Shown here: in pieces, positions 1 through 5,638 of the stretch
Position numbering within the stretch: the stretch's first letter is position 1
Layout: each line of letters opens with the position of its first letter
Origin: Candidatus Heimdallarchaeota archaeon
Lineage (GTDB): Archaea > Asgardarchaeota > Heimdallarchaeia > Heimdallarchaeales > Heimdallarchaeaceae
Reading direction: 5' to 3'
Length of the DNA: 6,442 bases
Assembly (NCBI GenBank): GCA_030668875.1
Contig: DAOVER010000096.1
Coordinates: 1-6,442 of the forward strand
Made by a program: the position numbers and the translations under genes
The notes under the pieces: generated by a model
Told to the model about the DNA's origin: nothing
What the model saw: only the letters and a program-made list of their open reading frames with translations
Database searches by the model: none

Positions 1-89
1 TTATAGAGATTTTTTGCTTGATGACAAATTCTACTCAGTGCTGGATGATACTCCACTTCTATACGCTCTGCACGCAATACCTTTGCCAT
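1..89 (-). CDS. tnpB: TnpB-like RNA-guided endonuclease, N-terminal 29 codons only (runs off window edge)
   Basis: Manual translation of the minus strand from ATG at 89-87 gives MAKVLRAERIEVEYHPALSRICHQAKNLY(N/K), open to position 1. The 'xxERI...L..lCH.aKNLYN' pattern is what I recognise as the N-terminus of IS200/IS605/IS607 TnpB proteins. It is not in the ORF track (short, edge-truncated). The RuvC domain is not visible. Confidence 0.75.
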   Translation of the reverse strand, partial: MAKVLRAERIEVEYHPALSRICHQAKNLY

Positions 90-150: not shown

Positions 151-369
151 TTACACCCTAATAAGACAAAAAGACAAAAGCATATTATAAATTGACCATA
201 CAATAAATACAATAGTAATCATACCAACATCGAGTTTGATTACAGAAAAGTAAAAAGTAAAAATCATAAAGGTAAAACCTTGATAAGCAACTTGATCTGC
301 TATTACACCTGCCCCATATGCAAGATTTCTACCTAGAGGTACTTCAAGTTCCATAAATACTTTTTCCAT
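151..369 (-). pseudogene. Truncated MFS transporter, GPH (glycoside-pentoside-hexuronide:cation symporter)-like; N-terminal 62 aa only
   Basis: 'VPLGRNLAYGAGVIADQVAYQGFTFMIFTFY...ITIVFIVWSIYN' matches the TM1-TM2 start of MelB/GPH-type carriers. The expected continuation (A-x-N-D-P...G..SD...GRR) is replaced by MLLSFCLIRV-stop. An MFS carrier should be about 400-470 aa. Confidence 0.75.
163..180. repeat. Short tandem direct repeat (AAGACAAA)x2 + AG
   Basis: AAGACAAA at 163-170 and 171-178, immediately next to the inferred insertion junction. Confidence 0.6.
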
Positions 370-885: not shown

Positions 886-2718
886 CTAGAGTGTTTCTTC
901 ATTTTTTTGTTTTAAGTATTCTTCTCTTTTCTCTTTCATATAAACTGGAATAGGTACATCCCACCAGCCCCATGCAGGTGAACCAGTATATTTAGGGTCT
1001 CTGTTAACCATAATCTCAACTATTGCAGGTCCTTCTTGATTAAAAGCTTCTTCCAGTGTAGGTTTTATTTCTTCTGTTCTAGAAATTCTTCGACTCCAGC
1101 ACCCAAACCCTTTCGCAATAGCTGCAAAATCAGGTGTGTAAGACTCACCTTTATGGTTCTTGAACTCTGTAGCATATCCGCGTTCTTCTCCATAGACAGC
1201 TCTTTGTAAATCAGTGATTGCAACCCATCCAGCATTATTTAGAATTACAACAACTACATTCAAATTCAGCTGTTTAGCTGTATGCAATTCCTGCATTGTC
1301 ATCATGAAATCTCCATCACCGACAAGCCCAATAACTTGCTTGTGAGGTTGTCCAAGTTTTGCTCCAATAGTAGCAGGTAAAGTAAATCCCATAGTGGAGA
1401 ATCCTCCAGCTGTTATGCAAGTATAAGGTTCATAAAATTCAAACTCTTGAATTAATTGAGCTTGAACATTACCTGAACTTGTTACAACAACCGCATCTCT
1501 TTTCAAAAATTCTCGTACTTCTTTTAATACACAAGAAATCATGACAGGTTTCAAAGAAGGAATTCTCCAATCATTAACAAACTTTAACCATTCTTCTTTT
1601 CGTTGATGAATTTCATTGAAATAGAAAGATGTGAGATAATTTACTGGAGTGAAATGATGTCTTAAAACATCCAACATATCACCCAATACAGCTTTAGCAT
1701 CTCCCACAATTCCCACATCTGTTGGATAATTTTTCCCAATTTCATTGGGGTCTATATCCACATGAATCAATCTTGTATCATTTATTCCATTACCAAAATT
1801 CCAAGCTATCCCCTTTCTATAAGAACATGTAGATTCATCTGCAAATCTTGTCCCAATAGCTAGAACAACATCAGCTTCGCTACTAAGCTGTATTCCCATT
1901 TTTGTTCCTTTCGATCCTGTTGCCCAACCAAAGAGAGGGTGATCATTTGGAAATGCATCCTTTGCCATCATTGATGCAAGTACGGGAGCGCCTGTGAATT
2001 CAGCTATTTCCTTAACTTCTTCAAAAGCTTTGGATGCTACTACTCCTCCACCTATCCAAACAACAGGTCTTTTTGCACTCATTAGCATCTCTGCTGCAAG
2101 TTTAATATGGTCTATATCTCCCCTTATCTTAGATGTTGATCTTCTTTTTTCAGGAATAGGTACTTTTCCCTTGGCATAATCGCATTGAACATCCATTGGT
2201 AAATTGATATGAACTGGACCTTTTCTTCCTGTGAGCATTATGTTGAAAGCTCTCTGAATAACCTTGGGAGCTTGATCAGCTGATGATAACTCAAATGATC
2301 TCTTCACTATCGATTCAAGTATTCTAGGCATTGAACTATCCTTTCTTCTTTCAATTTCTTGAAGCACACCAACGCCTCTCATATGTACATGAGTGTCTCC
2401 AGTAAGAACTAAAACAGGCATTGAATCAACATATGCATCTGCCAGCCCTATTGCTGTATTTATTGCTCCAGGACCAATACTTGTAAAAACTGCTAATGGT
2501 TGCCCAGTTACTCTATAATAACCTACAGCCATGTGAACACCAGCCATTTCTTGTTTAGGTTGAATAACTCTTATCTTATCTTGATATTTGTATAAGGCAT
2601 CAGTGAAACCTAAACATCCATGACCAGGAATGCCAAAGATATAAGGAAGACCCTCTTTAATGAGATATTCTATGATAACTTCAGATCCAGTTAGTTCAGA
2701 CTTTTTTGCTTCAACCAT
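886..2718 (-). CDS. Thiamine-diphosphate-dependent enzyme (AHAS/POX superfamily), IolD-like (trihydroxycyclohexane-1,2-dione acylhydrolase-like)
   Basis: N-terminal FGIPGHG, catalytic Glu in KQEMAGVHMA, SIGPGAIN, GPVHINLPMDVQ and ThDP/Mg motif GDGDFMM...VILNN. The GHG loop, GD...VLQEIE segment, GW-x-AI-x-DLQ and C-terminal WWDVP resemble IolD more than acetolactate synthase. The family call is strong; the substrate is tentative. Confidence 0.85.
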   Translation of the reverse strand: MVEAKKSELTGSEVIIEYLIKEGLPYIFGIPGHGCLGFTDALYKYQDKIRVIQPKQEMAGVHMAVGYYRVTGQPLAVFTSIGPGAINTAIGLADAYVDSMPVLVLTGDTHVHMRGVGVLQEIERRKDSSMPRILESIVKRSFELSSADQAPKVIQRAFNIMLTGRKGPVHINLPMDVQCDYAKGKVPIPEKRRSTSKIRGDIDHIKLAAEMLMSAKRPVVWIGGGVVASKAFEEVKEIAEFTGAPVLASMMAKDAFPNDHPLFGWATGSKGTKMGIQLSSEADVVLAIGTRFADESTCSYRKGIAWNFGNGINDTRLIHVDIDPNEIGKNYPTDVGIVGDAKAVLGDMLDVLRHHFTPVNYLTSFYFNEIHQRKEEWLKFVNDWRIPSLKPVMISCVLKEVREFLKRDAVVVTSSGNVQAQLIQEFEFYEPYTCITAGGFSTMGFTLPATIGAKLGQPHKQVIGLVGDGDFMMTMQELHTAKQLNLNVVVVILNNAGWVAITDLQRAVYGEERGYATEFKNHKGESYTPDFAAIAKGFGCWSRRISRTEEIKPTLEEAFNQEGPAIVEIMVNRDPKYTGSPAWGWWDVPIPVYMKEKREEYLKQKNEETL

Positions 2719-2892: not shown

Positions 2893-3723
2893 TCATCTTA
2901 ATTTTAACTCACTAATCTTCAAACCAAGATTCTGTAAACTATCTAGTACACTTGAAATCAGTTGTAATTGAGCATGCAAAGCTATTGGATGTTTAACGTT
3001 GATTAAAACTTGTCCAAATGTGTCAATGGATGGGAAAACCAGATTCATAGAAGAACAAGAATTTTTCTCAAAGTCAACATCAACGTAGAATACACTTAGC
3101 TTTCGTGCAAGTAAATCCTGAAATGCTTCATTTTTTATTAGCTTTCTTAATGTAGGTATCTTTTGTAACCTTTCACTAGATTGTAAATGTAAAATATCTA
3201 TCTTCGGACTCAATTTCTTTCGCTCTTTCAACAAATTCTGGATCGTTTCTTCATCTTCTGAGCTTAAAAGAAGAAAAATAATATTTGTTTGCATATTATC
3301 GATTAGATTCTTTAATCCTGCATAAACAGCCCTTTTTCCTTCAAAATAGGAAAAAAGATCTTCAACATCCCTAGTACGTTGTTCTTCTTTGACTTGTTCA
3401 AAATATTTATTGGCAACTTTTAGTTTTGATTGAAATTCACTCTCTAGCGATTCAATAACAATTTCATAAGGAACTGCCATAAAAGTATCAGGAATACCTT
3501 CTTTCTCTTGTCTGGTAACAAAAGTTCGCTCAACCAATCTTTCTAGAAAGCCATAAACTTTAGGTTGAGGAACAGCTGCTAAACGAGCTATTGTTGATGC
3601 GTGAGTTGGTCCCATACCTACTAAAGATGTATATGTTTTAGCTTCACCAAGTGCTAAACCAAGACTCGAAAGTGCTCTGATTGCATCTTCTTTAGAAAAA
3701 GAAGGGGGAGATTTTGTGTCCAT
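2893..3723 (-). CDS. trmB: TrmB-family transcriptional regulator
   Basis: N-terminal winged HTH LSSLGLALGEAKTYTSLVGMGPTHASTIARLAAVPQPKVYGFLERLVERTFV is typical of TrmB, followed by a coiled helix and a roughly 150-aa C-terminal effector-domain-sized region. AGTGAT lies just upstream of the ATG; 9-nt gap after the permease stop. Confidence 0.85.
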   Translation of the reverse strand: MDTKSPPSFSKEDAIRALSSLGLALGEAKTYTSLVGMGPTHASTIARLAAVPQPKVYGFLERLVERTFVTRQEKEGIPDTFMAVPYEIVIESLESEFQSKLKVANKYFEQVKEEQRTRDVEDLFSYFEGKRAVYAGLKNLIDNMQTNIIFLLLSSEDEETIQNLLKERKKLSPKIDILHLQSSERLQKIPTLRKLIKNEAFQDLLARKLSVFYVDVDFEKNSCSSMNLVFPSIDTFGQVLINVKHPIALHAQLQLISSVLDSLQNLGLKISELKLR

Positions 3724-3732
3724 TTAATCACT

Positions 3733-4890
3733 TTAATCTCTCATTCTATTCCTTACAGTTAGAACTGCTAGCACAAAGAATAGTATACACATCCCAGCAA
3801 CAACAACAAAATCTACCCAGAGTTCTGCGAAACCCCATCCTTTAAGCATTATCCCTTCAAATAAGTTGATTCCATATGTCAATGGAACAAGGTAAGATAA
3901 TGGTTGTAACCAGACGGGTAAGCTAACAATTGGTACTAACATTCCTCCTAAAGCCATACTTGGAATAGCTGTTAGTGGAGCAAATTGTATTGCTTGCAAT
4001 TCATTCTGTGCAAAGTTTGCTAAGAAGACTGCCATGAATACATGAGCTATACCAAATAGAGTAGCAGCGAATATAAGCAAGAAGACATTTCCTTGAACTC
4101 TAGCTCCAAATATGAATACTCCAAAGATTAAAACCAGTGTTATCATTAATAGGGCAATAAATAACAAACCTATAACATAGCCCAATAATCTCTCTGAAGA
4201 TCTTAATGGTGTTGCATAGAGACGATCTTCTGTCCCCTGTATTTTTTCTCTTGTAACGGTTATTACACCTACTATGACTAGAAGAAATATCAGAACAAAT
4301 GCAATAACAGCGGGAATACCAACATCTATGCCTGTAAACTCTGCTCCCTCATGTGCTAGTATTTGCACAACATTTATTCCTGTTTCCCCCATGGCTTCAT
4401 CCAGGGCGTCATGAATCGCTCCTAGTATGCTAGCGCGCACCTGGGGTTTTGTTGCATCAACATATATGAAAAGACCACCAGAAATATCATCTCCCATGAA
4501 CATTCGGATAATGTTTTCAGAGAAATTTTCTGGTATAAGAACCGCAGCATAGAATCTGCCACGTTCAACTAAATCAATGCCTTCAGTATAATCACCATCA
4601 GTTATATCGACGCTATTGTCTGCCTGAAGAGCTTCTGAAAGATTTAAGCCAAAGTTTATGCTCATATATTCCACATCCTGATTATCAAGAATAATTGGAA
4701 CATTATTCACTTCTCCACTGAATGCTAAACCAAATATTAGCATAATAGCAATAGGAACTACAATTAGTAAACCTAAAGTTCTTCTATCTCTTCGGAACTG
4801 ATTCATGGTTCTAGATGCAATTGCCATAGTTCTTCTGAATGAAAAATTCAGGTTTTTAGGAAGTATTTCATTCTTATCTTTTTTACTCAT
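3733..4890 (-). CDS. ABC-2 type exporter permease (one N-terminal TM, extracytoplasmic domain, five C-terminal TMs)
   Basis: 'RTMNQFRRDRRTLGLLIVVPIAIMLIFGLAF', 'SITREK..GT.DRL..TPL' and 'QPLSYLVPLTYGI' are ABC-2 permease patterns. ATG 4890 (MSKKDK) is preferred over the track's GTG 4908 because it has GGAGAG upstream and overlaps the ATPase stop by 8 nt. Confidence 0.88.
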   Translation of the reverse strand: MSKKDKNEILPKNLNFSFRRTMAIASRTMNQFRRDRRTLGLLIVVPIAIMLIFGLAFSGEVNNVPIILDNQDVEYMSINFGLNLSEALQADNSVDITDGDYTEGIDLVERGRFYAAVLIPENFSENIIRMFMGDDISGGLFIYVDATKPQVRASILGAIHDALDEAMGETGINVVQILAHEGAEFTGIDVGIPAVIAFVLIFLLVIVGVITVTREKIQGTEDRLYATPLRSSERLLGYVIGLLFIALLMITLVLIFGVFIFGARVQGNVFLLIFAATLFGIAHVFMAVFLANFAQNELQAIQFAPLTAIPSMALGGMLVPIVSLPVWLQPLSYLVPLTYGINLFEGIMLKGWGFAELWVDFVVVAGMCILFFVLAVLTVRNRMRD

Positions 4891-5638
4891 CGATAATCTC
4901 TCCTTCACTTAATTTTATGAAAATCTCCTCTATAGTGGAAGCATTGTGTTCTTTCTTCAACTCCATAGGAGTTCCTTCTGCAATCAATTTTCCAGCTCTC
5001 ATCAAACCAATCCTATCTGCTCTTTCAGCTTCATCCATAACGTGCGAGGTAATTACGAGAGTAATACCTTCGTCTTTAAGTGATCTAAAATATTCCCAGA
5101 AAAAGGTTCTAAGAACAGGATCTACGCCAACAGTGGCTTCATCAAAAAACACTATTCTAGGAGAATGTATCAAAGCACAAGCTATACTAGCTCTTCTTTT
5201 CATTCCACCAGATAGGTTCTTAACCAAAACTTTTCTTTTCTCTTCCAAACGCAGAATTTTAAGTAATTCATCATATCTTGGAGAAAATTCAGCTTTGGTC
5301 ATCCCGTATAATTGAGAGAAAAAGCGAACATTTTCTTCGAGACTTAAATCATGATAAATAGAATAATCTTGAGGAGCCATTCCAATATGATTTGAAATCA
5401 AGCGTCTTTTTTCCGGAATATCATACCCAAGCACTTTAATGCTTCCTGAAGTTGGGAATAATGCCCCACTTATCATGTTTAATGAAGTTGTTTTTCCACT
5501 ACCATTTGCACCAATAAGTGCATAGATCTCACTCTTCCTTATTTTCAGATTTAAACCATCTACTGCTTTTACTTTCCCAGTTTTGTATATTTTTACCAAA
5601 TCTGTTGTTTCTATGACATACTCACTCTGAGTAGCCAA
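4883..5638 (-). CDS. ABC transporter ATP-binding subunit (exporter type)
   Basis: Walker A GANGSGKT, signature LSGGMKRR, Walker B IVFFDE, D-loop GVDP and H-loop SH. TTG start at 5638 is preceded by SD AGGTGAT (5648-5642). Confidence 0.93.
   Translation of the reverse strand: MATQSEYVIETTDLVKIYKTGKVKAVDGLNLKIRKSEIYALIGANGSGKTTSLNMISGALFPTSGSIKVLGYDIPEKRRLISNHIGMAPQDYSIYHDLSLEENVRFFSQLYGMTKAEFSPRYDELLKILRLEEKRKVLVKNLSGGMKRRASIACALIHSPRIVFFDEATVGVDPVLRTFFWEYFRSLKDEGITLVITSHVMDEAERADRIGLMRAGKLIAEGTPMELKKEHNASTIEEIFIKLSEGEIIDE

Follow-up and report, generated by a model that had tools for sequence, protein, structure and literature searches.

A probable IS607-like, tnpB-only element interrupts a cation symporter gene in a Heimdallarchaeota genome

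The window analysed here is a 6,442-bp stretch of DNA that makes up the entire contig C14 of a 3.2-Mb Candidatus Heimdallarchaeota MAG (92% complete). Near one of its ends, an open reading frame of 72 aa on the minus strand (369-151) reads like the start of a sugar transporter as far as Trp-Ser-Ile-Tyr-Asn (198-184), and then runs through ten more codons to a stop. What cut this gene short, and where exactly does the cut lie? The original prediction proposed insertion of an IS200/IS605 element encoding the nuclease TnpB, placed 3' of a short AT-rich motif that would also be the TAM of that TnpB, with the rest of the transporter resuming beyond the right end of the element.

The transporter gene and its other half

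Only 61 codons of the short frame (369-187) derive from a transporter, and the following features are relevant to its interruption.

187..369, minus strand: 5' part, 61 codons long, of a gene for a GPH/MFS_2 cation symporter; its other 420 codons are at C72:494-1753
151..186, minus strand: eleven element-derived codons and a stop, forming the tail of the artefactual 72-aa ORF
886..2718, minus strand: gene for a TPP enzyme (acetolactate-synthase-like), the synteny anchor upstream of the transporter in relatives

The right end of the element was defined from a complete copy on contig C46, and the genome was then scanned for right ends. On contig C72, a right end of the same element type is followed directly, from position 494, by Asn-Ala-Phe-Asn-Asp-Pro...Gly-Arg-Arg-Arg-Pro-Trp and a stop-free 420-codon remainder, which matches PF13347 (E 6.5e-52) and TIGR00792 (E 6e-36, with a score under the TIGR00792 cut-off). 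The transporter does thus resume beyond the right end, as predicted. It could not do so on an extended contig, where the remainder had been expected, because the window is the whole of C14; it is found on a separate contig instead.

When the halves from C14 and C72 are rejoined, they give a 481-aa frame that is 55-60% identical to syntenic orthologues and that, by its PF13347 and TIGR00792 matches, resembles the GPH (glycoside-pentoside-hexuronide):cation symporters of MFS_2, differing from other genes of this kind in being interrupted. In nine relatives with frames of 465-489 aa the 61-aa and 420-aa matches abut without a gap, and the sequence Trp-Ser-Ile/Val-Tyr-Asn-Ala-Phe-Asn-Asp-Pro is uninterrupted in six full-length relatives and one partial one. 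We also see that the intact transporter of relatives has the TPP-enzyme gene (here on C14) upstream and trxB (here on C72) downstream. Because the halves abut gap-free in relatives, intact orthologues exist and synteny is kept, the 72-aa protein is a truncation and not, as the original prediction had allowed that it might be, a natural full-length product; the MFS continuation, whose loss had likewise been considered, is present.

We infer that C14 and C72 carry two halves of one gene, with ~740 nt of tnpB unassembled between them, and sequence comparison confirms the predicted insertion, by which a GPH/MFS gene was split by a tnpB-only element of ~1.43 kb. That the split is instead an assembly artefact or a rearrangement, and the transporter not really divided by a single element, is barely credible. 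The halves do lie on two MAG contigs, and at least one assembled copy of the element (on C94) looks chimeric, but each half stops precisely where a canonical element end begins, the two can be rejoined in frame at an AT, the assembly holds no intact transporter allele, and synteny agrees on both sides. Joining C79 to C92 also yields a plausible frame, which makes this a candidate second split gene.

Identity between the transporter and its syntenic orthologue in genome G010 (locus L015) is only 60%, compared to 93% for the flanking genes, and nothing in the relatives' loci matches a 146-aa ORF at 434-874. This comparison (187-874 and C72:494-1753 against L015) suggests that a foreign allele replaced the transporter in place before the insertion. 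Elsewhere in the window, a TrmB-family regulator and an ABC-2 permease with its ATPase gene (2893-5638) are ordinary.

The AT junction and the target motif

The left junction reads ...ATT T-AT followed by the element, and the right junction reads element ...CATC-AT followed by AAT GCA. Keeping a single AT on rejoining restores Tyr-Asn-Ala and the reading frame, which places the insertion in codon 61 (Tyr) of the transporter.

187..188, minus strand: core dinucleotide AT, found at the left and right junctions and as a single copy in the empty allele
187..190, minus strand: TTAT target motif, conserved at left junctions, and predicted TAM

The original prediction had suggested alignment to empty alleles as a check, and in such alignments the one-AT join scores best at the transporter site; the empty alleles that relatives provide for four further copies (on C91, C83, C46 and C31) are likewise gap-free at the junction with exactly one AT. 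Formally, if the AT on the right is assigned to the element, nothing is duplicated.

Bases 1 to ~190 of the window match about 20 other places in the genome, the similarity stopping at 190-192, and among the copies 177-182 of the 186 nt in the left-end region are identical. Copies on C79, C86 and C98 share the left tip and have different flanks. The transporter similarity had been said to end at Trp-Ser-Ile-Tyr-Asn, and the ORF does read so, but the AAT (Asn) at 186-184 is the left tip of the element, which by a three-nucleotide coincidence starts like the right flank, so that the transporter match appeared to extend as far as Asn. Placing the junction at 184, or as late as 176 (proposed from an Ala-Phe after a 2-nt offset, which is chance), was rejected, since these bases are common to copies with other flanks; the candidate motifs TATAA and ATAAT fall for the same reason. 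Only at this site could one suppose a 5-bp duplication of ATAAT, which was rejected on the evidence of 62 paired copies and the alignment scores; +1 matches in 25 of the 62 pairs, or about chance.

Flanks were then compared, a further check that had been proposed. The non-redundant set of junctions, drawn from this genome together with metagenome contigs and about 15 relatives, comprised 76 on the left and 89 on the right. Only the internal repeats and the AT served to call an end, with the flanks kept out of scoring. At left junctions, -3 is T in 73/76 and -4 is T in 66/76, while -5 is T in 38 and A in 29; TTAT precedes 64 of the 76 left ends (the AT was forced by the search, the TT was not). 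At right junctions, +1 is R in 64/89, +2 is A in 60/89 and +3 is A in 47/89, the +2 value comparing with 31% at genomic TTAT sites (p 3e-12). Start-codon survivorship was rejected as the source of this right-flank bias, which persists without +1 G: when possible ATG start codons are removed, +2 is A in 39/62 (p 2e-7). These data show a target of the form (W)TT-AT-RAA, an asymmetric palindrome with its stricter half on the left.

Given this target across junctions, TTAT is likely to be the TAM and is our best prediction, in line with the original expectation that the junction motif would reveal it. Of the motifs first put forward, TTTAT (191-187) contains the true one and is the commonest form (35/76 left junctions), but it was rejected as the full motif, as T at -5 is only mildly enriched (35/64, p 0.007 against the intergenic background). 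The stricter left side could reflect either a transposase preference or retention by TnpB.

Insertions at C18:27364 in this genome and at locus L039 lie exactly at a start codon, where the core AT and a flanking G regenerate ATG and so leave the downstream gene intact.

The nuclease, its predicted RNA and the element ends

Complete copies of the element are 1,418-1,434 bp long. The window holds its left part.

1..89, minus strand: tnpB, which runs off the contig after its first 29 codons; complete copies encode 415-419 aa
90..186, minus strand: left end of the tnpB-only element, 97 bp, with ~20 left-end copies in the genome
112..118, minus strand: TATA-like box, 29 nt 5' of the start of tnpB, visible in most copies and likely a leaderless promoter
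165..177, minus strand: pair of TTGTC repeats with a period of 8 bp, starting 9 bp in from the AT; putative transposase-binding sites

The TnpB of the C46 copy matches NF040570 (E 1e-45), and its close homologues are from Ca. Heimdallarchaeota and Heimdallarchaeaceae; a PDB sequence search gave only weak Cas12f matches. Aligned in this copy, the RuvC catalytic triad is present as D186 in Asp-Leu-Gly, an alternative E335 and the aspartate of Asn-Ala-Asp-Val-Asn, with G288 in place of the canonical RuvC-II Glu. This rearranged RuvC-II is like that of the RIIr-5 or Ealt TnpBs, such as TvoTnpB (PMC10691335, PMC10312701, PMC10711439), a placement that rests on motifs and not on a tree with reference sequences. 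TvoTnpB, itself of the rearranged RIIr-5 type, has been shown to be active (PMC10312701). The Heimdall protein differs from this group in lacking the zinc finger and in having Asp-Leu-Gly rather than Asp-Pro-Gly, and its predicted TAM, TTAT, differs from the TGAC of TvoTnpB. A link to Fanzor was considered and rejected: pro-Fanzors are defined by Asp-Pro-Gly in RuvC-I together with the alternative Glu (PMC10711439), so this TnpB is not one.

In the last ~155 nt of the element, the consensus of 88 copies has conserved stems with compensatory pairs, and six bases of a hairpin loop pair with the CAUCAU at the terminus. The loop G pairs with a tip C in 64 copies and a loop U with a tip A in 15. 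This covariation shows a predicted RNA structure, without a match in Rfam, in which the terminal AT is part of the pseudoknot. The first base of the guide is expected to be the one that follows the right-end AT; as the pseudoknot ends the predicted omega-RNA at that AT, the predicted guide of the transporter copy matches the sequence that follows TTAT in the empty transporter allele.

Inverted TTGTC-type copies also sit 9 bp inside the right-end AT. The spacer is 9 in 64/76 left and 88/89 right ends, in a search that allowed 9 or 10. Within a single copy, the left and right ends agree at 20.3 of 28 positions, compared to 18.7±0.2 for shuffled pairs (0 of 2000 shuffles), a resemblance to which kinship among copies contributes. 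The right end has a small hairpin that is also part of the predicted omega-RNA. No hairpin was detected at the left end, the folding of which across 76 copies is on a par with that of shuffled sequences (median z +0.3, with 5% under -2; -0.8 and +0.8 for the left end in the window).

Several related loci were seen along the way. The copy at C94:36806-38237 has the left end of one subfamily, the right end of another and flanks that cannot be joined in relatives; it looks like a chimera, made by assembly or by recombination between copies. Solo right-end remnants without tnpB occur at C3:14600-14640 and C56:19130-19170. C13:57440-58860 and C27:32350-32793 hold copies of a solo tnpB family that is more distantly related (38-44%) and has another left-end motif; the C13 copy also seems to end in TCAT. 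On a plasmid from an Asgard sample (P-10H_0, LC711081.1; locus L123:2745-2897), a related TnpB gene (41%) is immediately followed by a CRISPR-like minimal array of three ~30-bp identical repeats with unique spacers of ~31 bp.

How the element may be mobilised

Databases label this TnpB family IS200/IS605 or IS605 OrfB, and the original prediction made the same assignment. In this model a Y1 TnpA inserts an IS1341-group element 3' of TTAT, with TCAT at the right end and no duplication, which a single junction does fit. The element resembles that group in being tnpB-only, in the AT-rich motif 5' of its left end, in an omega-RNA that overlaps the 3' end of tnpB and in the small right-end hairpin. 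TTAT and TTTAT are known IS605 left sites and TAMs, as for ISGst2 TnpB2, with a TAM of TTTAT (PMC9956272; 10.1101/2023.03.14.532601), and TvoTnpB, with its rearranged RuvC-II, has been drawn with an IS605 TnpA (PMC10312701). However, the right flank is non-random here and variable in IS200/IS605 (PMC10711439), the left end has no hairpin, and the ends are inverted, co-varying repeats. Y1 TnpA was not found in this genome or in 23 congeners (72-90% complete), of which 18 have this type of TnpB, and a tree shows that the TnpBs adjoining Y1 genes in the family are unrelated canonical ones. The Y1 model is thus largely refuted, and we consider it very improbable.

The tnpA-linked relatives of this TnpB point elsewhere, as all those found carry an IS607 serine TnpA. 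They comprise a Methanohalobium locus (NF033518, 190 bits), ISCbo10, a Segatella IS607 and ~13 Asgard loci, the last being a biased sample with 30-45% identical TnpB, as they were retrieved with a serine TnpA query. In the TnpB tree, which has the same biased sampling and weak deep support, the solo clade (100/100) lies among the serine-linked relatives. The RIIr-5 clade as a whole associates with Y1 and serine TnpA alike (PMC10691335). In three serine-TnpA-linked loci (L244, L125 and L246) the predicted RNA scaffolds tentatively end in CT or AT and not GG, where prediction of the end from the pseudoknot is noisy in such outgroups; cores other than GG may be common in this TnpB clade.

The comparators for IS607 were H. 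pylori IS607, IS1535, ISC1926, CboIStron and ISXfa1 (PMC6188088, PMC4058570, PMC10711439, 10.1101/2023.11.20.567912). IS607 exchanges strands across an identical 2-bp sequence between ends bearing short inverted motifs (PMC6188088), its reRNA has a pseudoknot next to the guide with the flanking nucleotide as part of the scaffold (PMC10711439), and the TnpA target is the TnpB TAM (10.1101/2023.11.20.567912). The Heimdall element likewise has the same dinucleotide at its left and right junctions, with a single copy in the empty allele (at five sites), short repeats inverted between its ends, a target motif of four nucleotides that finishes with the two-base core (TTAT in this element, TGGG in CboIStron), an RNA pseudoknot reaching into the core, and serine-TnpA-linked TnpB relatives. 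It differs in that the ends are symmetric, resembling terminal inverted repeats, that the target preference extends into the right flank, that tnpA is absent from every copy seen, and that the core is AT, while characterised IS607 cores are GG (PMC6188088). Overall, this is probably a non-autonomous IS607-type element with AT in place of the GG core, the mobiliser of which was not found. Since its working is IS607-like but the core is not GG and no MerR-HTH serine TnpA is found in cis, we file it as an IS607-like variant and not as a member.

The core and the missing cognate transposase both count against the IS607 reading. No tnpA lies upstream in ~100 inspected copies within the fetched flanks, the element ends lying ~70-115 nt before tnpB. 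Genome, genus and phylum searches gave no IS607 TnpA with matching ends, no Cas1 was found, and genome, metagenome and viral contig searches gave no cognate transposase with matching ends. The IS607 TnpA genes of the host genome belong to a separate element with different ends, which carries a serine TnpA and a 637-aa TnpB-like gene (C48:36100-38790, C87:1-2318 and C15:30700-31460).

A DDE enzyme making a 2-bp duplication would give the same junction sequence, which also counts against the IS607 reading. Such a transposase, acting in trans, would use the end repeats as terminal inverted repeats and leave AT as the target-site duplication; the inverted symmetric ends, the one AT in the empty site and the near-palindromic target fit it equally well, and DDE-linked TnpBs with inverted terminal repeats have been described (PMC10691335). 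We nevertheless regard it as unlikely, as the transposase-bearing relatives are serine-linked and an end-motif scan gave no element with matching ends and another gene. Furthermore, DDE element ends are expected to have conserved tips, whereas the left tip is variable here (+1 is G in 49 and A in 25, and +3 and +4 are mixed), and the constancy of the right tip is explained by the RNA pseudoknot.

It is quite improbable that, instead of a cognate TnpA, a host chromosomal serine recombinase or another unrecognised enzyme moves this high-copy TnpB lineage, which has persisted long without a transposase, at the palindromic TT-AT-AA. Two paralogous small serine recombinases with a Resolvase domain (PF00239; C18:25768-26481 and C29:40648-41394) occur in 22/24 genus and 27/29 family genomes and, at E 1e-25, were found in none of the other genomes among 399 of the phylum. 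This distribution roughly matches the high-copy clade, and such an enzyme, in place of an IS607 TnpA, would explain long persistence without tnpA; however, the co-occurrence with TnpB is confined to one clade and is therefore not independent evidence. In addition, the gene, part of a conserved cluster, resembles a host gene; end motifs differ among subfamilies while conservation of the enzyme is 83-97%; and the enzyme was not found in some families that have related, apparently AT-ended solo elements (L044, L047). These specific recombinases as the mobiliser are a weak lead and, in our judgement, distinctly improbable.

Under the favoured IS607-type reading, an element of ~1.43 kb (left end, tnpB, and omega-RNA with right end) would have inserted recently into symporter codon 61, and assembly would have broken inside the repeat, so that one half came to lie on C14 and the other on C72. 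The short end repeats would be bound by a serine recombinase provided in trans, and this enzyme would excise a double-stranded circle joined at AT, which would recombine into the matching AT of a near-palindromic AT-rich target. TnpB, with an omega-RNA whose guide is the bases after the right-end AT, would then recognise TTAT plus a guide match, which is exactly the empty transporter allele, and the cut made there would favour retention of the element by recombination. The filled allele would be spared, because its TTAT is followed by left-end DNA and its guide-matching DNA is preceded by TCAT.

An insertion sequence that disrupts a transporter is ordinary, and the value of this one lies in the base-exact boundaries that it gives for an abundant Heimdall TnpB family. 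For a 419-aa nuclease without a zinc finger, these yield testable predictions: a TTAT TAM, a scaffold ending in CAUCAU, and a guide starting from the next base. The data also suggest that IS607-type recombination is not tied to GG. The family reaches about 30 copies per genome with no cognate transposase visible, and if the host-recombinase reading were true, it would be an RNA-guided selfish element with its mobility outsourced to a host enzyme.
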